This document shows positions 18,546-33,000 of a stretch of DNA of 64,000 nucleotides, one piece after another. The stretch's first letter is position 1. Every line of letters begins with the position of its first letter. Under the pieces are notes generated by a model that saw only the letters and a list, made by a program, of their open reading frames with translations, was not told where the DNA came from and did not search any database. Source of the stretch: Lytechinus pictus (lineage: Eukaryota); the NCBI RefSeq assembly GCF_037042905.1, contig NC_087250.1, forward strand, positions 28,274,001 through 28,338,000, written 5' to 3'. Both the position numbers and the translations under genes were made by a program.

Positions 18546-19372
18546 AGGTTTAACTTAACCCTAGAAAGTTCGATCACTGCGCATACGTGTGTCACCGAAG
18601 TCTATCACGTGATCAACTTTTGACGGATCCATATCCCCAGGGGCGGATCAAGGATTTTTTAAAAGGGGGGCACATGTTCCCGAGGAAAAATTTTACAAGC
18701 AAAAAAACAAACAGGGTTTTAACAAAAAATTAAGAACATTTGTCAACGAACAAATTTGACAAGCAAGCAAAAAAAAAGGAAAAAAAAAGGTCTTTACTTT
18801 CAAAATCAAGGGGGGTGCACACTTCTGTTTTAACGGCATTTTTACATTACAAATTTTAATTGTACCTCTCAACTCCGCCAAATAATGTTACGTTGTTCCT
18901 TATTAGTTTATACATGTGGCGTTCCATAGGCGTTTACTGAGAGAACAGCGGAAGAAGCGGTGAGTTTCGCCACTAGCCATAAAATCAGCATTTATGGACA
19001 AATCTTTTGCCTTAATTGTTCCTATTAAATTTGCACAAATTGCCAGGTAGGTTGACATCTCATATAATATATTCATAGAAAGTTAATTAGTAATTAAGAC
19101 GCTTTTGCCCGAATGAAACAATATCGTAGTCCCACATGTTGACTTTCATGTAGACCAAAAGCTTCGGTCTCTGTTATATGCTCACTGCTATCTAACGTCC
19201 ATGCGCAGTGAGTCGCCATGTGCAATTTTTTTACTGTTGCGCCACTCACCTGTCACTGCCTGACTACAATGGTTCTAGAAATCTTTTGCAATGTTGAAAA
19301 GTGTCTTGTGGCATCTGATATTAATCCTCAGTAATTCCCTGAAACACTCTAGTCTAGGCGACACCCCAATAC

Positions 19373-20270
19373 CACTCCTAGTACCAATGAGGTCCAAACA
19401 ATGAAACATTAACATGTGATGTATGGACCTCATAGGCGACAATGCGTTAAAAACAGGTTAGAACTTCTAAACGTACTGTTTCTTGCACCCAAGTATGATA
19501 TTACTCCCAAAATATGAGTTTTGTCCTCGTTTGTTTATCATTTATTAAAAGATTGCCCGTTAAATATATTCCTATTCCTAATTTGAATTTAATAAAATAA
19601 AGGGAAACTTACATTTGAGTCATTTTTCGATCTTTTTTTGGCAGTCAGTCCGGTCACCGTCGAGTGCGATCAAAGCGGTATGAAGCTGATTTTCAGATCA
19701 CGTGATACGTGTGGTCATCACCTGATCAATCGACTATCCTTTTTTAAAGACCGCAACAATTATAAATTTTATTATAAAATATATATAGAATGAATAATTG
19801 CATGATATTATATATATTTCTACAATTAAAAATATTTCGTGATATGAATTTAATATTTGACGTAAAAATCGCTATTTAACAAAATATTTATTAAAAATAA
19901 AAAATCAAACAAAATAAAAACGCCTTGGACACAGTGCAAAAAACCTAACAATTTGGCCGCGTTCTTAACAACTATCGTAAGGGGCGCTCTATTTATAAAT
20001 AAAGTTGCATATGTAGCTGTCTACCGCGACAGGAACAGCCGCAGAATTGAAGCCAGAAGCGTGGGAAATTGCCAGAAAATTCAAGAAAAGAACCGGTGAG
20101 TACCGATTTAACAGTACTAATTTATTAAGTAACATTTATTGAATCATTACAAGATTTATTTTTTAGTAAAACAAAGCTTAGTTCTACTTCTAAGCTAGGG
20201 CGGCCCAAATGCGCGTGAGTGGAGTCCCAGTTTATTAGCACGGGTAAGTATTGGGGTGTCGCCTAGAGTG
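19373..20270. mobile_element. 898-bp member of the same family inserted in reverse into the outer copy's left end
   Basis: Exact 8-bp TSD CCCAATAC at 19365-19372 and 20271-20278. Begins with a type B end and finishes with a type A end (...GGGGTGTCGCCTAGAGTG). Confidence 0.85.
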
Positions 20271-20600
20271 CCCAATACTTACCCGTGTTAATAAACTGGG
20301 ACTCCACTCACGCGCATTTGGGCCGCCCTAGCTTACAACTAAGCTTTGTTTTACGAAAAAATAAATATTCTTATAATTCAATACATGTTACTAAATAAAT
20401 TTGTACTGTTAAATCGGTACTCACCGGTTCTTTTCTTGAATTTGCTGGCAATTTCCCACGCTTCTGGCTACAATTCTGCGACTAGCCCTGTCGCGGTAGA
20501 CAGCTACATATGCAACTTTATTTATAAATGGAGCGCCCCTTACGAGAGTTGTTAATGCCGCGGAGAAATCGTTAGGCATTTTTGCCTGTGTTCAAGGCGT
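19920..20600. repeat. ~680-bp imperfect palindrome with a 15-bp loop
   Basis: Arms ~19920-20255 and 20271-~20600; the inner 65 bp have one mismatch; loop is GTGTCGCCTAGAGTG. Confidence 0.95.
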
Positions 20601-23600
20601 AGCTGTTCTATTTTTTTTATAGGTATGAGATCGAAATCACAGCGAACTCGTATTTACACTCTTCCATAATGATTCCGAAAGAGAGGCGCATCACCCCCAC
20701 CCACATGGGCGCAAATCCCAGGGGGACATGTCCCCCTCACCCAAAATAGTCGGGGGCACATTATGAAATGCCCCTCTACTATTTTTGGTCTTTTAATTCA
20801 AAATCGAAATAATTAAAACATGTATTTTGGAAGAGACGATCTTACTTTTGGGGTGCCCTTCTTTTAATTGGGGTGATAAAACCTTTTTTTTTTTTTTTTT
20901 TTGCTTGTCAAATTTTCCAGCCCCTAGTCCCCCTACCTTTGGGGAGAGATTTCCGCCCTTGCCTAACACTACTCTTGATATTGTTTGCGAATCTGCATGG
21001 GCGTCGGGGGCTGGGGGATGAGGAAAAGCGGTGAGACGAGAAAAAAATAGAAGGGAAAAGAGAACAGAAATAAAGTGAACGAAAGATAAATTAATGGAAA
21101 ATAAAAGGGAGGAGAAGATAGTGAGAAAAGGGATTTTATGTGCCCGTGCAAAAAGAAATGAGCAGAGGTTGAGATGTTGTCCGTTTGGGCAAATTTTTGT
21201 CTGTATGTTGGACTGGCGCCTGTTGCAAAAATTATTAAGCTGATTGAATCAGGAAATGTTCCAACTGCTTCATGAGGATTTAGCGGTTGTAGGTATAAAT
21301 CCGTATAAATCGCGCTCTAACGCTCTAAAACTGTGTTCCGGGCTGTGGGGCTGTGTTCTTTAAAGTTGTCCTTCATATTCATTTTCGCAAAAGAATATCA
21401 AGTTTTCAATCAATTGTCTATAGTTATCCTGTTTATGATAAAAAATACTTAGAAATTGGGTTAGGTTAGGGTTAAAAATTATCAGGGCACAAAATATATT
21501 TTTTCAGCTCGAGCGTCGAGCTGGCATTATTTGATCTGTGAGATTATGTTTTTAATGACATTCATTCTATTCACAGCAATATATTATTAAACATTGCCGC
21601 ACGCGCTGCGTGCCGCATGAATTATAGATAGGTCTATACTTATCAGGTGAATGCTTTACCGCTTCACACTGATCATGCTGATACTGTTTTGTAAATTATA
21701 AAAAAGGGGAATTTCACCTTGATAAAAAGATTGTGATAATAAGAAAAATAATTTCAAAATATCGGTGAAGGTGTTATTATTATTTTTTTAATTGGAGTTA
21801 ATAGAATTTCGAATGCTTGATTTGTGACGCCATAAACAAGCAGTTGCTCTATATTCTATGTAATATAAAATGCCAAAATTTCCCATTTTTAATGGTCCGT
21901 AATGACCCACTTTTTTCTTTTTGGAACGAGTAGGGGTATGAAGTTATCTATTGAAATACTGAATGTACAATAAAAGTCATTATCATGTATTTCTTGACAT
22001 TTCATTTACTTTTTTTTTTACCATAATTATATCCTATATAGCTGCTCGCTTAGGTCTACGCCGTCTAATTTTTTTAAAATCTCACCTTTAATTTTTTTTT
22101 GGATGGGGGATTGATTTTCCTTGAATGCATACCAATTTTTCAAAGTATTTTTTTCTGCTATTTTCATAATAAACTTTAAATGAATTCACCTTTGCACTAC
22201 TTAATTTTTTCAAAGACAAAATTACATCTAGTCATCATCATCATCACCAACTTCATTCTCATCTTCATCACCACTAACACCATCATCATCATCACCGCCA
22301 CCATCACCACCACCATCATCTTCACCAAGATAATTTTCATCATCATAATCATTGCCATCATCATCTTTCCTTTTTTCTTATTTTTTCCCCTTCCAGTTCT
22401 TTTTTTCCCTTCATATTTTCCTCCTTTTTCAGAGGGGCACACCACCACGCCCCCTCATTGGATATCCGCCTCTAAACGTGTTTGATGTTGTATATAAGTT
22501 GGCGGATGCCTCATGAATTGAAATAACAGAGAAAATAAGGAAATGGAAAAAAGTAAGAAGAAAAAGAAGGATGAGGAGAAGAAAAAAAGAAAGCCAAACA
22601 AACAAGAAAAAACAATATCAAAATTTCGTAATAAAGTCTTCTACTTCAGTTTAATAATTGTGTTTTCAATGAAATGAGAACATAAAAGAATTGAAACAAG
22701 TAAAAAGGGCTACATCATAGTTAAAAGAAATAGAGGTAAGCTCCGAGACAATAAAAAAGGGTAAAAAAATAAGAAAATACTTTGAAACACTCACACCACG
22801 AGCATAATAAAAAAAATTGGGAATAAGCGAGGACAAGTAGCTGAGGGACCCCCCCCTCTCTCTAGTTATTTATCTATCAAACTCGCATTTACAAGAACTT
22901 CTTACTAATCAAAATATTGCGAGCAAAAAGCATGAGCTGGCATTTTTTTAAATATTCAAAACTGATAGAGAGACACCTTTTAAACAATTCATGAAACATA
23001 ATAATCATTCATTAGCTTAATCGAATCATTCGATTGCGAAAGGATCTGAGAATTTAGTGTTTTTAGGAATTCATTCGAAGCATAAAATTGTATCTCAACA
23101 TTAAAATAAGATGGGCGCAACGCATGAGCTAAAGCTTTATATACCAATACAAAATTTGGACATTTAAAATATTTTCGTATATAGTTATGAAAAAGATTGA
23201 TATTTCATGAAAGCTCGAATCCCGAGGAGGAATATTTTTTATTAATTAACTTTTAAAAAGGCTGTTCTAAGCCCCATTTAATATTTGATTATAAGTCGTA
23301 TAAAACAGTAAAAGCTGAAAAAATAAATTATTTTTTATTCCAAAATTATTCTCTTTCTCTTTAACCCTGGTTCTTTTTTTTCTGGGGGGGAGTATTTTGG
23401 TTTTAAAAAAGAGAGAAAAAAGATAATTGCTGGCTTGTACTGGACGGTAGTGGTAGGGACACCCCTCCGGACCCCCACCCCCCCCCCCCCCCCCCGTAGT
23501 TACGCGTTACGCCATTATTGGACCAAATGATCCTACATGTCCGAGGCGAAACTTGTGCAATCAATTAAACGTTATTTAAAAAAAAAAATTAAAGCTTGCG

Positions 23601-25178
23601 CTGTTTAACTTCAATCTCTTTCACCTAAATTTACGATGAATGCTAGCGTTATGAAATATATAACTATCAACGTCTGGTGAAAAGAATAACCAACCGATCA
23701 CCTGACGAGAACGCGTATCACGTGATCTGCATATCAGCTCCGATCGCGAGTCAGAAGTGAAGAGCAACTGCCAAGAAAATCAAGAAAAAGTCGTCAAAAT
23801 GTAAGTTTCCCTTAATTTCTTTCATTTTTTGTTGTTGCTAACAATGCATTTACACACTAAAATTTAAATTTAAATAAAAGAAACGAATTATAGCTTCTAC
23901 TTGGGATATAATATAGAAATATCCTGTTCTCAAAGATTTCTAACCCAAAATACTACTGATGTCGCCTATGAGGTCCATACATGTAATGTTTGGACCTCAT
24001 TGGTACTAGGAGTGCCCTGAAATGCTGCAACGTTTGGTTCAAAGATCCAGCAATAGACAAAGGAGTTAAGCGCAGTCAAAGTCAGACTTGCAAACTTGGT
24101 CCGTACGGTGCGAATTTAAGCTGCCATTTTTCTCGGGCGACGATTTGAGACGCCCACACTAAGCAATCGATGTTTCCAAAACTGCCCGCTCAAGTTACCA
24201 TTACCAATATTTGGTATCAAAATATAGATTATAAAAAAATGCTCACGATCATTTCATTTTGAAGGTGGGGGTGACAATTGTTATCAAAATAAGAGGGGTT
24301 GGCGACTCAACGTATATCTCAACCCACGGAGAGGTTTCAACAATGCAGCTGAGTCAATGCACTTTTGTGTACGATCGGTGCGTGTGTGTGCGCATGCGCG
24401 ATATGTCTGTGTAGTAAATGTATTGGATTTTTTTAATCGGCGACTCAAAATATACCCATCATTGTGTCGCCGTTCCGGAAGTGTGTATTTCATGATGTTC
24501 TTACTAAAAACTATAGCAATTTCAGGAGAAAAGTTTATCATATATTTCAAAGGATTTGTGGATACTTTCATCTCATACAAAGATTTGGGTGATAATTTTT
24601 TTTTTTGGTTGCAAAATTGAAGGTTGAAGACTGCCGATGGCGACTCACTGCGCATGGACGTTAGACAGCTGGCAGCCGTCTGTTTCGAGGAGTTTTTTAG
24701 CATTTTTTTATTTTTTAAATTTCTCCTCATACACAGACGGCTCGCTATCGTGCAGCCACCATTAGGGGACTTACAATGCAAAATCCCCCCGTCGGGGCTC
24801 TTCAATTTTTGTCTTTAATGAATCAAACTTTTGAAAATTAACGCGACCGAAGACAAAGTGCAAATTAATATTCCCTCTTGGCATTAATTGCCAAAAAACG
24901 GCGAAAATCAAGTTAAAAGGAACAAAAACAGTGACTTACCTCGGCTGTCGCGCAACTTCACTGCCCTGTTTTATCCGAACTTAATACACATACCTAATAA
25001 ACATATGGCCATTGAGTCCGATCCCCTGTACAGATCGCGCTAGAACTTTGGTCTCTGTATTTGGTGAGTGAAGCCAACGGAGTTCAGCTGAACAACCAAC
25101 ATAACAGAGACCGAAGTTTTTGGTCTCACTGCTATCCTGCCTGTGGAGAATCTACAGGTAGGACTATGGTTTGCCAAT

Positions 25179-26938: not shown

Positions 26939-27845
26939 ATGGGTAAAAGTGACAGCCTTAAGAGACAACGCCAAGCAACTTCTGAGGAAAAAAGTGACGT
27001 CAAATCAGGAAAAGCGAACAATGCTGACAAGACTGCCACGCCCCGGGAAAAGGTACGTACTGCAAGTACGAACGATACAGATATGATGTTACGTAACATT
27101 CTCGAGAAGGTGTCTGTTCTTGATGAGATTAAAACTGAATATAAATACCATATCAGAGAGAATGAGCAGAATTGAAACTAAGTTTGAGAGGATGGATACA
27201 AGGATTCAAGATGTGGAAAATGCGACAGAGTTTATGGAAAATGAAATGAGGGAAATGGAGGAAGAAATTCAAAACATTCAAGCAACAAAGGCGAGCTATG
27301 AATATGTTAATAAGCTGAGAAGAGATGTAGTAGATCTAGTCAACCGTAGCAAGCAAAACAACGTGATCCTACATGGGATTCCTGAAGGGGTAGAAGGCGC
27401 ACCGAGCAATTGCATAACATTTGCACGTGACTTCTTCAGGTAGTATTTGCATATCAATGATGTTGAGATTGAACGTGCCCATCGAACCCCCGCCAGCGCC
27501 AGAGATCAGCGAAGCGAGAGACCGAGTAGGCCACGCCCAATGCACGTTAAATTGCTCCGATACACAGATAGAGTGGCAATCTTGAAAGAAAGCGGCAAAC
27601 TCAAAGCAGTTGAAATTCAGGGGTCACGTGTTGGAATAAGCGATGATGTTCACACGGATACAAGAAACGAACACAAGAGGCTAATGATGAAAGTGAAAGA
27701 TCTTCGATCACAAAATATATTTGCATTCATCCCAAACTCAGTACCACGTGTTATAAAGTATAAAGATGTCCCCAAAGATCTACCCGGCCCCCTTAAAACA
27801 TTGAGGTTGGCCGATCTTGATAACGGCAATGTTAAAACGGTCTGA
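26939..27845 (+). pseudogene. LINE ORF1p (coiled coil + RRM, L1 type), with frameshift and stop
   Basis: Three consecutive ORFs with DLVNRSKQNNVILHGIPEG and EIERAHR...PRP; frameshift near 27135 and TAG at 27441. Confidence 0.88.
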
Positions 27846-28398
27846 TAAAGTGTTTAGAGAAATAAACAATACGACTACGTCTCTCTTTTTATGTCATACG
27901 AATGTCTGTGCCGACAACTAATCTTTTACTGCCAGGAGCTCCCCTCCCTGCACTACTTTTTGTTTTTTCCATCATGATAGGTAAACTTAAAGCGGTCGAC
28001 CCTCTGACTTCTTTTTTACCCTTATTTTTTATGTGTCTGGTACGGGTAGTCCGGTTTTTAGGTTTTTGTTTGTTTGCCTATAAATCTAGGCCTGAAAGTA
28101 ATTCACATTATATTTTACTTTCCATGTTTGTATTTGTGAAGATATCTCAATACTTAATTATACGGTTGTTATCAACACATAATAACCTATCAACTTTATG
28201 AACGATTTTATAGATATAAAAATTTGCTCCCTGAATGTAAGGGGTTTGAGAAACGATTTTAAGAGAAGGTGCATTTTCAACTGGATCAGGACTCTTGACT
28301 TTCATCTAATACTGTTACAAGAATGAAGAATCCCACTCGACAACGAGATCAGAGCGAAGATGGAAACACGAATGGGGATATAAAATATTATTTAATCT

Positions 28399-29079
28399 GA
28401 AGTTCTCAAACCAAAAAGTGACAAGGAGACCACCGACAGAATACCGCTTGTGACCACCTTCCATCCCAATCTACCCCCTCTCCGCAAAATCCTGTTTGAT
28501 AACCACCACATTTTACACACTTCTGATCGTCTCCAACAGGCCGTTCCCGATACTCCCCTTCTAGCATACCGACGCCCACCGAATCTCAGGGACCTCATTG
28601 TTCGTGCTGAAGTGCCCTCCCTCACTAACCATTCTTCTCCCATACAGCATGGCACCTTCAAATGCACCAGCAACAGGTGCATCATATGTGAAATACACCT
28701 TCACGAGGGCGATACTTTCACCAGCAACTCTACCAGCCTGTCTCACCAAATCAAGGGCAACATCACATGCACTACCACTAATGTTGTATATCTCATCACT
28801 TGCAGAGTTTGTAGGGTACAATACATAGGGGAAACCAAGACCACACTCAAGAAACGATTCTACGGGCACAGATCCACCGTCAACACAGCAAAGCTGGACA
28901 CTCCAGTTGGCCGCCATTTTAACCTCCCCAACCACTCCATCACTGACATGATGCTACAGGGCATCGAATCTTTAGGTACCCGTCCTGACTCAGTCCGTAC
29001 TAGCAGGGAGAAGCTCTGGATGAGACGACTTCGCACCACCCAACCTCATGGCCTGAACATCCAAGAGGGGAACGACTGA
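28399..29079 (+). CDS. Penelope-like linker + GIY-YIG endonuclease (5'-truncated, frame open)
   Basis: AYRRPPNLRDLIVRA, CxxxxCxxC linker, NVVYLITCRVCRVQYIGET...RFYGH...HFN...RE..W...L.T..P.GLN. Confidence 0.9.
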   Translation, partial: EVLKPKSDKETTDRIPLVTTFHPNLPPLRKILFDNHHILHTSDRLQQAVPDTPLLAYRRPPNLRDLIVRAEVPSLTNHSSPIQHGTFKCTSNRCIICEIHLHEGDTFTSNSTSLSHQIKGNITCTTTNVVYLITCRVCRVQYIGETKTTLKKRFYGHRSTVNTAKLDTPVGRHFNLPNHSITDMMLQGIESLGTRPDSVRTSREKLWMRRLRTTQPHGLNIQEGND

Positions 29080-29398
29080 TTTTTCTTTCCTATCCACTTT
29101 CAATTTATATATACATATAATTTTTCCCCTCAGCTCTTTTGAATAGTTACATTATAGTTTCTTACTCTACTTTCCTCCCATATCTCATACAAGCTCAGCT
29201 CCAATTTTTCCTTCCTTATTCAGGCGATATAATAATTATTATATATATATATATATTTGTTTTTTCTCCACTCACCTCTTTTAGATTTACCACATTTGCT
29301 TATTTACATGTATACTATGGTTTCTTCATAATACACCCCCTCTCTTCTATATTTGCTTTTACCTTTTTAGGCAATTTGCTTCCTCTTTTTCACATATA

Positions 29399-29442
<44 letters not shown>

Positions 29443-30019
29443 CTTTCCTTCTATATAGTCTTATGTTTTTCCCGTCACACCTAGCGGATTACCATATCAG
29501 TTACACCATATGTGTATATATTTATATATTTTTTCATATACATTTCTCTTTTGGATATATTTATATACATATCACTTATAGATACATATTTACACTTACC
29601 TTCTTCTCTTAGTTTGTTTAATGCTTTATCATATATACTTATATGTCTTTTGCACATTATCAGTTGTTCCCCATTCTTTTTCTTCTTTTTTTCCCCCCAC
29701 TCTTATGCACCAGTTTATTAAGCCTTTCTTTGTAACCTGTTTGACCCACCTCTCACTAATTCTCTAGTTATTCATCCCTCTATCACTGTTTTGTTCCAGA
29801 TCCTGTTTGATGTTGCCTGCCTCATTATCTTAATCCCTCTTGGCCTTACTTACACTAACTTCCCTTTGTGTCTGCCTACTCCTTTTCTTTCATCCCCTTC
29901 ACTAACCTGATTGGTCTTCTCTACTCACTAATGCCCCTTTTGTCTCCTTGTTTCTAGTGTTGCTGTAGCTTGTTTGTGGTCTATATTATGGTTGTTCCAC
30001 TTTATATGTTTGTCATTTT

Positions 30020-30058
30020 GCCTCCGACGAAGATTCTGCTAGGATCGAAAGCTTAGGC
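30020..30058 (+). ncRNA. Minimal type-I hammerhead-ribozyme-like motif (core variant CCGACGA)
   Basis: GCCT-CCGACGA-A-GATTC..GGATC-GAAA-GCTT-AGGC gives stem I, stem II and a palindromic stem III, at the Penelope 3' end where such motifs are expected. Confidence 0.6.
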
Positions 30059-33000
30059 CCCTTTTTGACTTTATAATATTATTTAATCACGGAACATCAG
30101 GAAGTGCCGGAGTGTGCATTCTCTTCAAACCATCTGCTTCATTTGACGTTGTAAACACTGTTAAAGACGACCACGGAAGAATACTACTTACGATATTAAA
30201 AATAAATGAAATGATGTTAACAGTTGGAAATATATACGGTCCAAACAACGACGACAGTTCTTTTTTCGAAGACTTACATTCTCTTATATTTGAACATTGT
30301 GAAGAACCCTATGTGTTAGCAGGAGATTTTAACACGGTTTTGGAACCCACAAAATATAAATTCCCCAAAGCTTTCCAAAACCATCCAAGATGTAAAAAGG
30401 TAATAATAGAAATAATTGATGATTTTGATTTACTGGACATTTGGCGCCATACTCATCTACCAGACAAAAAATATACATGGATGTGAAAAGATATGAGATT
30501 CAGAAGTAGAATTGATTATTTCCTCATTTCTCAAACCTTATCGTCTTCTGTTGTAACAAGTGACGTTACCTATGGTTATAAATCAGATTATTCGTTGGTA
30601 TCACTAGTTCTAATAAAATCAATTACCAAAAGGGGGCCAGGTTTCTGGAAATTGAATACCTCTCTTTTAGCTGATACTGTCAAGAAAATTAAAAAAGAAA
30701 TTGTTTCAATTTTGAATGGAAATGATAACCTTCACCCCTTACAACGCTGGGAATATTTGAAGTACAAAATAAAACAGAAGATAATACAAATCTCAAAACA
30801 AAAGAAAATGGAAGATCAGGAGAAAATGAAAAGTTTAGAAAAAGAAATCAATTATTTAAATGATATTATTCAAAGTTGCGTGGATAATGAATTAGCAAGC
30901 AAATTAGAAGAGAAAAAAAGAGAATTTGAAATATTACATGAAGGTGTTGTACGTGGGACAATCGTGCGATCGAAAGTGAGATGGATCGCAGAGGGAGAGA
31001 AAAATACCAAATACTTTGCAAACTTAGAAAAAAGAAATTACCAACAGAAATGTATATTTCGGCTCCAAACAGATACAGGTATTATTTTTAATTCAAAAAA
31101 TATTCTTGAAGAAGAAAGGACCTTTTATGCTAATTTGTATTCATCTCAAGAGAACATTCTGAATAAGAATATATCAATGAAAAACTTAAATATACCAACT
31201 GTAAATGAGAGTGACATAAATATGTTGGGATCAATGATAACAGAGAAGGAGTGTTATGATTCGATTATGTCTTTTGCAACAAGTCACCAGGGAGTGACGG
31301 GTTGCCAATTGAGTTCTACAAGACTTTTTGGAATGAAATAAATCCTTTACTATGTTCAGTTTTTAATGAAAGTTTTGAAAAAAATGTATTACCTCATTCA
31401 ATGAGGAGAAGTATTATTACACTGTTGCCTAAAAAAGGGAAAAATTTACTTTTACTGAAAAATTGGCGTCCAATCTCTTTATTAAATAGTGATTATAAGA
31501 TTCTCGCAAAAATTATTTCTTTCCAAATAAAAAAAGTAATATCACCTCTCATAAATCATGATCAATGTGGTTTTCTCAAAGGATGTTATATTGGCGAAAA
31601 TTTAAGACTTTTTATTGATATTCAAAATTATTGCAAAAAGCACAATGTTGGCGGTCTTGCACTCTGTATTGACTTTGAAAAAGCGTTTGATACAGTTGAG
31701 TGGTCTTTTATATACAAAACAATAAGAAGGTTCGGTTTCAGTGAAAAATTTGTTCGTTGGGTTCAACTTCTTTATGTTGATATTAAAGGTTGTGTAATAA
31801 ATAATGGCTATTCCTCAAATATTTTTGAAATACACCGCGGAGTATTAAAGACAAGGTTGTCCGCTCTCGCCATATCTCTTTATTTTAGTTGTTGAAATTT
31901 TAGGTTGTTTAGTTCGAGAAAATCAAGAAATTTGTGGTTTAAAAATATATGATAATACTGAAATAAAAATAAGTCAATATGCAGACGACACAACCATTTA
32001 CCTTGAACCCAACGAACAAAACTTATGAAAATGCATATCTGTATTAAATACTTTTAAAGAAATGTCTGGATTGAAAGTCAATGTTGAAAAGTGTAATGTT
32101 ATTCAACTTGGGAATTGTACAATGTATTTATGCCAAGACATTCCTTTTTAATGGCCCGTAGATTATTTTTCTTATTTAGGCATAAAAATCCCATTAAGCG
32201 ATAAACATACTTTTTTTTTATTTAAACTTTATACCAAAACTGGATGAGATCAAATCTCTGTTAAACATTTGGAATGGTAGATCTCTTACATTGTATGGAA
32301 AGATAGTAGTAATAAAAAAATTGGTCATTCCAAAACTAATATATCTTTTAAGCATTATTTCAGACCCACCACCGACCTTCTTTATCGAAATGCAACAGCA
32401 ATTATTTAATTTTTTATGGAGTAAAAAAGGTGATAAAATTAAGCGTTCTCTGTTATACAATGACTACAAAGATAGTGGTCTAAAAATGTTACATTTGTCA
32501 CGTTTTAATCAAGCACTTAAAGTATCATGGGTCAAAAGATTTTTAGATGATGATAATGGGAAATGGAAGTGTTTTTTTAAAGAATCTGTTCGTTTCATTG
32601 GTGAGAGCAAATTTACGATTTTGAATATTAGCAAAAGTCATATATTATTCAATCCATGTACCAAAACTGTTTAGAATGATGTATTGAGTTCATGGTCATA
32701 TTACAGATACTATCATCCTGTTAAGTTTAAGGAAATACTGTCGCAACCTCTGTGGTTCAATTCACACATTTTAGTTGATGGAAAACCTCTTTATATTCAA
32801 AGATGGTCAGAATCTTCTTTAAACACTATTTACGATTTTCTAACAGAAGATGGACTTTTTAAGTCTTTTGAAGTTATAGTTGAGAACTACGGTTACACAT
32901 CCATCATGATGTATAATTCATTATTATCTGCCATACCAAATGAATGGAAAAGAGTTATTAGAAAAAAAATACATAAAACAGAATACACCTTTTGAACCAC

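Follow-up and report, generated by a model that had tools for sequence, protein, structure and literature searches.

Nested organization of the locus

The DNA analyzed here, referred to as the window, is a stretch of 64,000 nucleotides from Lytechinus pictus (contig NC_087250.1 of assembly GCF_037042905.1, positions 28,274,001 to 28,338,000 of the forward strand). Between window positions 19337 and 24022 it holds two copies of one transposon family, the second lying within the first. The two copies are delimited by interleaved exact 8-bp duplications. The 8-mer CCCTGAAA is found at 19337-19344 and 24015-24022, abutting both tips of an outer copy (19345-24014), and the 8-mer CCCAATAC at 19365-19372 and 20271-20278, flanking an inner copy of 898 bp (19373-20270). 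In the outer copy CACTCTAGTCTAGGCGACACCCCAATAC forms end A and the reverse complement of CACTCCTAGTACCAATGAGGTCC... forms end B; the inner copy has end B on its left and end A on its right and is thus inverted relative to the outer copy. A first-pass annotation made from the sequence alone had reported both duplications with these coordinates, an outer copy running from A to B and an inner 898-bp copy running from B to A inside the outer end A. The duplications were found in the sequence as it described them, and the layout can be seen directly. The 23-mers of end A and end B each match twice in the window compared to 0 matches expected from shuffled sequence, and TAGGCGACA matches four times compared to 0.17 expected. 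The features of the nest are as follows.

19337..19344, no strand: left target-site duplication of the outer copy, CCCTGAAA, identical to the 8-mer at 24015-24022
19345..19372, plus strand: tip of outer end A, 28 bp, differing from the family consensus by a 5-bp duplication of TCTAG; the inner copy targeted its last 8 bp, CCCAATAC
19373..20270, plus strand: inner copy of 898 bp, oriented from end B to end A, assigned to a young non-coding 879-bp subfamily by comparison with the subfamily consensus
19373..19441, plus strand: inner end B, consisting of the tip CACTCCTAG, a quasi-palindrome with a 13-bp insertion and then TAGGCGACA (fold and cross-subfamily conservation)
20183..20270, minus strand: inner end A, an 88-bp block nearly invariant between subfamilies (alignment of six A arms from three subfamilies)
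20271..20278, no strand: right inner target-site duplication CCCAATAC, corresponding to canonical positions 16-23 of outer end A
20279..20618, plus strand: remainder of the outer A arm, which pairs with that of the inner copy in a palindrome (inverted repeats I1 and I2)
20620..23650, no strand: non-coding interior of the outer copy, itself repetitive (full-length matches of 81-94% identity at more than 20 loci)
23651..24014, minus strand: outer B arm with the conserved B-end tip block at 23960-24014 (inverted repeats I3, I6, I7 and I9 with the inner B arm; fold z -5.7)
24015..24022, no strand: right target-site duplication of the outer copy, CCCTGAAA

When the inner copy and one CCCAATAC are removed, the outer end A matches intact ends elsewhere in the form CACTCTAG(TCTAG)GCGACACCCCAATACTTACCCGTG, with a single CCCAATAC. 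Therefore, the repeat of CCCAATAC is a true target-site duplication. The TCTAG variant of the outer end A is also present at two other loci (L022 and L024). As a result of the inverted insertion the nest contains a long palindrome with arms of about 350 bp around a 15-nt centre, made up of 19902-20186/20334-20618 (87% complementary) and 20185-20255/20271-20341 (96%). Such a structure might be suspected to be an assembly artefact: long inverted repeats are hard to assemble, and the 29-mer that spans the A28|B junction in the window has no second match in the genome. We regard this as very improbable. A site that intact ends contain once is present as an exact 8-bp duplication at both junctions, similarly built nests exist at other loci, each with its own duplication, and the arms of the palindrome differ by 4-13% and therefore are not a collapsed copy of one sequence. 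The nest in the window is an ordinary insertion with an 8-bp duplication, located at a hot spot within the family's own tip.

No transposase reading frame is present in the nest, in agreement with the first-pass annotation. The longest stop-to-stop frame comprises 151 aa and is of low complexity, and a Pfam scan of ten frames gave chance matches below threshold only, with no family above the cut-off. A scan of the window against Rfam returned no match.

Family size, end pairing and age

The assembly searched comprises 812 Mb. Tips were counted as 23-mers with at most one mismatch, using reversed patterns as controls. This search yielded 480 end-A tips and 628 end-B tips genome-wide and none with the controls. 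The elements thus belong to a real repeat family, as had been proposed, while the accompanying label "unclassified" is not supported, the design looking like that of hAT or P elements. No paper was found when three tip strings were used in a full-text literature search, which is silent on the content of Repbase and Dfam. Families with shared tips of 8-9 nt and unlike ends would escape programs that look for long terminal inverted repeats and may easily stay unannotated.

Pairing was evaluated on contigs C1 and C2, where both tip lists are complete, for ends lying within 20 kb of each other. The resulting 53 pairs comprised 51 A-B pairs, two B..B pairs and no A..A pair; 44 ends remained unpaired. 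The expected pairing of A with B was therefore observed, and 42 of the 51 A-B pairs span 864-890 bp. One of the B..B pairs arises artefactually from a nest (L063). The other is a free-standing element of 2953 bp with 380-bp arms of 76% identity and without a target-site duplication. Taken at face value, these numbers could indicate a new superfamily with an obligatory asymmetric synapsis of one A and one B end, comparable to the 12/23 rule: A..A is absent, the single free-standing B..B element has no duplication, and both end types are conserved across subfamilies. Descent of all copies from one A-B master copy could explain the pairing, so that pairing alone proves nothing and does not show that the enzyme needs one end of each kind.

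Target-site duplications were examined in a sample of 39 loci with 34 paired copies. Consistent with the duplication length proposed by the first-pass annotation, 24 of the 34 have exact duplications of 8 bp. The remaining copies show duplications of 9 bp (four copies), 7 bp (one) and 10 bp (one, in a tandem array), and four have no match, one of these agreeing at 7 of 8 positions.

Three lineages were distinguished. The inner copy belongs to the young 879-bp subfamily, for which two arm-specific 26-mers match 103 and 94 times, corresponding to about 100 copies. It differs from the subfamily consensus by 0.68% substitutions and by insertions of 13 bp and 6 bp; its first 400 bp are found with 96% identity in other copies. 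Since 23 of 24 sampled young copies lie 0-0.7% from the consensus (one lies at 5.7%) and several are identical, the sequences point to a very recent burst of this subfamily. Being 879 bp long, non-coding, present in about 100 near-identical copies and flanked by target-site duplications, these elements have the properties of MITEs (miniature inverted-repeat transposable elements), with a terminal repeat of just 8-9 nt. The outer copy belongs to an older, non-coding subfamily of 3.4-3.8 kb, in which full-length relatives of its interior are 81-94% identical and likewise carry A and B ends and 8-bp duplications. The third lineage is an older 877-bp subfamily. Given such recent activity, the family is a candidate system in which transposition may still be live within the genome of an invertebrate.

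Members of the family cluster locally. Of 97 elements or solo ends on C1 and C2, 14 lie less than 1 kb from another member of the family; when placement was randomized in 300 trials, the mean was 0.35 and the highest value 4. At one locus (L011, G000:C5:23397637-23401023) at least three 879-bp copies are arranged head to tail with the same 10-bp spacer, GGCTAGAGGC, and the A-arm 26-mers recur with a period of 888 bp. This locus is a small transposon-derived tandem array.

The two ends and the target site

The terminal repeat shared by the two ends is limited to CACTC(C)TAG. In end A the tip CACTCTAG passes directly into GCGACA, and about 88 bp are conserved. In end B the tip CACTCCTAG is followed by a 40-nt quasi-palindrome and only then by GCGACA, and 56 bp are conserved. 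The ends had been described as sharing CACTC(C)TAG and TAGGCGACA, close together in A and apart in B. This holds: the two motifs overlap in A and are 38 nt apart in the B consensus and 51 nt apart in the inner copy, by way of its 13-bp insertion. Computed as a single strand, end B folds with -13.9 kcal/mol (z -5.4) for the consensus and -12.8 kcal/mol (z -4.1) for the inner copy; the z value of the outer copy is given in the list above. End A has a z value of +1.1 and contains no quasi-palindrome.

Between subfamilies positions 1-56 of end B are 96% conserved and the next 240 bp are unalignable. More generally, the arms beyond the tip blocks show 72-78% identity or cannot be aligned across lineages. 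Conserved tips next to decayed arms are the pattern that would be expected of cis-acting transposition signals. An interpretation of the arms as long degenerate inverted repeats was discarded: blastn of the consensus against its own reverse strand was empty, and a repeat search gave just one match of 23 nt at 83%. In both arms a TATAAATA-like box is followed by donor-like sites GTGAGT or GTAAGT directed outward to the tips (window 20020-20270 and 23700-23810; positions 600-879 and 230-330 of the 879-bp consensus). These sites may be due to chance in AT-rich DNA or may reflect outward transcription into flanking genes. Small insertions occur at positions 8 and 20-30 of end A in the outer copy of the window and at L018, L028, L039 and L063, in mixed forms; they may be excision footprints of earlier tip insertions or products of slippage.

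The target sequence was derived from 28 sites oriented from B to A. Positions 1 and 2 are G and T in 17 sites each, and positions 7 and 8 are A and C in 17 and 15 sites, with four mixed positions in between. This is a palindromic GTnnnnAC, and the flanks of these 28 sites carry no signal. A membership of the P superfamily instead of hAT has to be considered at this point. It would imply a THAP9-like enzyme that recognizes the tip and an internal site at different distances in each end. The unequal distances of TAGGCGACA from the tip in A and in B agree with this, as the binding sites of P transposase are also unequally spaced. The shared tip of 8-9 nt, without any long perfect repeat, is much shorter than that of the Drosophila P element. 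P elements have 8-bp duplications as well, and the outer GT..AC of the family target fits the P target motif ATRGTCCGGACWAT, as given in the available part of PMC2577343. In the 28 sites, admittedly a small sample, the four central positions are not GC-rich, the central CCGG is absent and no flanking A/T signal is present. Taken together, an assignment to the P superfamily appears unlikely.

Insertion into resident tips of the family

In order to find further nests the genome was searched with a degenerate pattern of the form tip, 1-30 nt, tip, which corresponds to tip-to-tip distances of 14-43 bp. Seven matches were obtained.

C1:31595102: resident B, offset 42, incoming A
C3:45028081: resident B, offset 38, incoming B
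C5:49862457: resident A, offset 24, incoming A
C6:6019343: resident B, offset 16, incoming A
C7:38821549: resident B, offset 16, incoming A variant
C21:11709341: resident A variant, offset 17, incoming A
C26:430826: resident A, offset 23, incoming A; flanking 8-mer CCCAATAC, the same site as in the window; known from its left junction only

Two nests were missed by the pattern. The one at C1:7596641 lies at offset 16 of a B end and has the duplication GTACCAAT; the nest in the window escaped because of its TCTAG duplication. Altogether, nine nests are located 16-42 bp inside a family tip, and three of them (the window, L063 and C1:7596641) were verified at both junctions with exact duplications. 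Offsets recur, with B16 and A23-24 found three times each and B38-42 twice. With 31-60 nt between the tips (distance 44-73 bp) no genuine nest exists, since all 18 matches fall into one 49-bp satellite that also matches the control. The unit of this satellite (G000:C10:1856250-1857149) matches the degenerate tip pattern and is unrelated to the family.

The expected number of such nests is 0.02-0.05 by our own arithmetic from the tip counts (about 1100 tips with 30 positions each, about 550 insertions, 812 Mb). Thus, the preference for its own terminus that the first-pass annotation had suspected is borne out, and targeting of the family's own tips beyond chance is supported. The further proposal of nesting at the same offset holds in part. 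The site CCCAATAC is matched by the left junction at C26:430826, while the exact junction of the window has no second example, and in place of one fixed nested architecture the nests recur at a few hot spots.

A chance nest in a family that merely hops locally, without any preference for tips, would be helped by the strong local clustering, which increases the number of self-hits, and by nests that lie deeper in copies (position 664 at L007, about 75 bp at C2:61159836 and about 836 bp at C1:37201946). This explanation is difficult to reconcile with a count of nine nests in the 43 bp next to a tip compared to zero in the 30 bp that follow, with the recurrence of offsets and with the random expectation given above. 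We therefore consider it improbable.

The targeting of its own tips is the sole feature by which this family goes beyond the ordinary, and self-nesting is unusually frequent here. The available part of PMC3260210 reports one nested Ds among 903 Ac/Ds elements of maize B73 and no double Ds; in this respect the sea urchin family, in which self-nesting is common, differs from maize Ac/Ds. For P elements head-to-head tandems in screens and dimers of P and hobo formed by double insertion are described (PMC5932611, in part). Dimers and head-to-head tandems are, according to the same source, frequent during active transposition of P elements, a likeness to which the head-to-tail array L011 may be added, and they speak for the P alternative. 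P dimers differ from the present nests: their tips abut and have one duplication in common, whereas the nests have the incoming copy placed within the resident tip.

A more far-reaching proposal is that the transposase prefers resident tips at fixed offsets (about 16, 23-24 and 38-42 bp), the opposite of target immunity, so as to form inverted double elements, that it needs A and B ends, and that it is perhaps a divergent enzyme of the Hermes fold for which Pfam has no model. This combination is conceivable but doubtful. If homing to tips at fixed offsets were true, the family would offer a natural system in which to study how an end-bound transposase steers target choice. Landing in its own tips gives rise to long palindromes and head-to-tail arrays, and structures of this kind can break chromosomes or seed satellites.

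Search for the transposase

A long copy carrying a THAP/P, hAT or MULE transposase, which the first-pass annotation had suggested looking for, was not found among the long copies examined. The 11.2-kb candidate at C1:7596641 consists of a short copy into which about 10.3 kb of foreign DNA, including a separate element of 5.4 kb, has been inserted at CCCAATAC|TTACCC of end A. At this locus (G000:C1:7596641-7607800, L042/L043) the foreign DNA occupies the same site as the nest in the window, has no visible duplication and has at one end a GC hairpin followed by CTAG. From these sequence features the insertion of about 10.3 kb might be Helitron-like. The 13.8-kb candidate at C1:41351515 turned out to be an 879-bp copy with a 12.9-kb element that has its own GGTC... 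terminal repeats. This element (G000:C1:41351515-41365347, L046/L047), whose terminal repeats are GGTCMTTTTCAC...GGTGTAAC, interrupts an AT-rich stretch of the copy and contains no open reading frame (ORF) of 120 aa or more. A third candidate at C1:19780018 (12.4 kb) has no ORF of note.

At three loci young-type B and A arms lie 10.3-10.7 kb apart (G000:C17:15456088-15466839, C20:13283792-13294070 and C37:195796-206396, the last being L021). L021 is not an autonomous element: the copy is broken at about position 627, in the TATAAATA stretch, by a LINE that begins with an ORF1-like frame. The three loci may represent either a remobilized composite or a hot spot for LINE insertion.

An 838-aa ORF within the foreign DNA at C1 (L043:56-2569, minus strand, corresponding to G000:C1:7602296-7604809) was considered as the transposase of the family and rejected. 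The 5.4-kb element that carries it is also found at C2:18517035 without A or B ends, and 12 related loci lack the family motif. The element has terminal repeats of its own, TAGGTAYGTGA..., and the copy of the ORF at G000:C2:18517035-18519548 is identical. No Pfam family and no sequence match in the PDB were found for the encoded protein, which has 1824 relatives in a representative library and many intact relatives in the genome. The residues D284, D360, C385, H388 and E641 are invariant, and their spacing is what we take to be the pattern of the hAT catalytic core. A structural model has a pLDDT of 83; its ten best fold matches are Hermes transposase, then P transposase. Judging from this model, the protein looks like a member of a divergent clade of Hermes-fold transposases missed by current profiles.

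Two further candidates were excluded. Neither a 703-aa Hermes-like relative (L064), taken with its flanks, nor one of two P-like genes of 959 aa (L065), taken with 2.5-3.5 kb of DNA to either side, contains an A or B motif or has similarity to the family; the latter result is a point against the P alternative. The genome contains 62 matches to the hAT dimerization domain and 41 matches to the P-type RNase H domain. Two copies with a hAT dimerization domain are reported as frames of 823 aa (C7:46890835 and C11:14812039), and Hermes-like genes of 655-703 aa are present in multiple copies. The presence of P-type genes, among them two copies reported as open frames of 959 aa, is compatible with a P-type source of transposase.

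Comparison with known systems and classification

The layout of the family strongly resembles that of Hermes. According to the available part of PMC10368747, Hermes is delimited by ends of about 450 bp that are unlike each other and bear imperfect 17-bp repeats as caps, and it prefers 8-bp nTnnnnAn targets; a quasi-palindromic pair of subterminal repeats beside the left tip binds BED domains, and the right end binds none. As in hAT elements of the Hermes, hobo and Ac type, the present family has 8-bp duplications at an nTnnnnAn-type target (here 17 of 28 sites have T at position 2, and 17 have A at position 7), and short imperfect terminal repeats on dissimilar ends. As in Hermes, a quasi-palindrome lies beside the tip of one end only, here deduced from fold computation. 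Local clustering is shared with Ac-type hAT elements. Non-coding derivatives with little in common beyond their ends are known from Ds and hAT MITEs (PMC3260210, in its account of Ds classes); there, Ds may share just tips and a few subterminal motifs with Ac. By this analogy the two unlike ends would represent the usual hAT-type design, much of which is shared by P elements, and no new signal. The asymmetric two-end signal, which had been put forward as new, thus has a counterpart in the layout of Hermes as far as PMC10368747 describes it.

The same comparison bears on the proposed new superfamily. Duplication length, target logo, dissimilar ends and the palindrome at one end are all matched by Hermes (PMC10368747, in part), and a transposase not found among the copies and loci examined is weak evidence. 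On the other side, no transposase is linked to the family at the loci examined. The tip also misfits the hAT and P tip consensus. On balance, a new superfamily is rather improbable. We read the family as hAT-like because layout and target are those of Hermes and because the P target has a GC-rich centre that is not seen here.

With a probability of roughly 70% the interval consists of two non-autonomous cut-and-paste DNA transposons of one hAT-like family, one within the other. Several points weigh against this reading. Both tips start with CACTC, in which only the A at position 2 fits YARNG, the consensus of hAT terminal repeats. No motif of 7-8 nt occurs three or more times in the consensus, and a multi-copy subterminal hexamer as in hAT elements was not found. 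No autonomous copy was found, the long copies examined being short elements with foreign insertions, and no hAT gene was found linked to the family. None of the domain matches on C1 and C2 lies within 20 kb of an unpaired end of these contigs, with the exception of one broken P-like match (C1:32364431) at a distance of 14 kb from the unpaired end A at C1:32378806. For six of the nine nests just one junction is known. The possible excision footprint at L018 seems to retain CA and TG from the tips of the element, contrary to the usual pattern in hAT elements, and the A-B pairing may be just a matter of common descent. P elements moreover have 8-bp duplications and the GT..AC at the outer target positions in common with the family (PMC2577343, in part). 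Consequently, the mode of action of the family is regarded as hAT-like, P being the main rival, and the family is filed as a member of neither, because the CACTC tip misfits the hAT consensus and no transposase is linked.

A transposase makes a staggered 8-bp cut at the target, preferentially at GTnnnnAC. In the preferred hAT-like reading this enzyme would be supplied in trans and would probably be of hAT type, less likely of P type. By analogy with Hermes it may recognize the short shared tip together with end-specific subterminal DNA. The older outer copy of 3.76 kb inserted first, at CCCTGAAA. A young copy of the 879-bp subfamily then entered canonical positions 16-23 of the outer end A in inverted orientation, thereby duplicating CCCAATAC. 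This order is deduced from the 0.68% divergence of the inner copy from its consensus as compared to the 81-94% identity of the outer interior to its relatives. By count, the CCCAATAC site is among a small number of hot spots that lie 16-42 bp within tips of the family. The likely cause is that transposase sitting on resident ends tethers incoming complexes, which would direct strand transfer to positions just inside those ends.

The outcome is a "double element" with a long palindrome, similar to double Ds or head-to-head P elements. In double Ds one element is inserted in inverted orientation inside another. Common to both cases are the inverted insertion of a member of the same family, ends in unusual orientation and a long palindrome; the present nest differs in its insertion site, 16-23 bp away from the tip, and in its partners, which come from different subfamilies. 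Double Ds is mentioned as chromosome-breaking in PMC3260210 (available part).

Neighbouring features of the window

A 50-nt inverted repeat (19180-19229/24627-24676, 84% complementary) lies about 110 bp to the left and 600 bp to the right of the nest. The outer copy may thus reside within a third element that has terminal repeats. Further downstream, frames of retroelements occupy 27444-32674. As read from the translations, they comprise a GIY-YIG-like frame at 28396-29079 and LINE-like endonuclease and reverse-transcriptase frames at 30043-32674.

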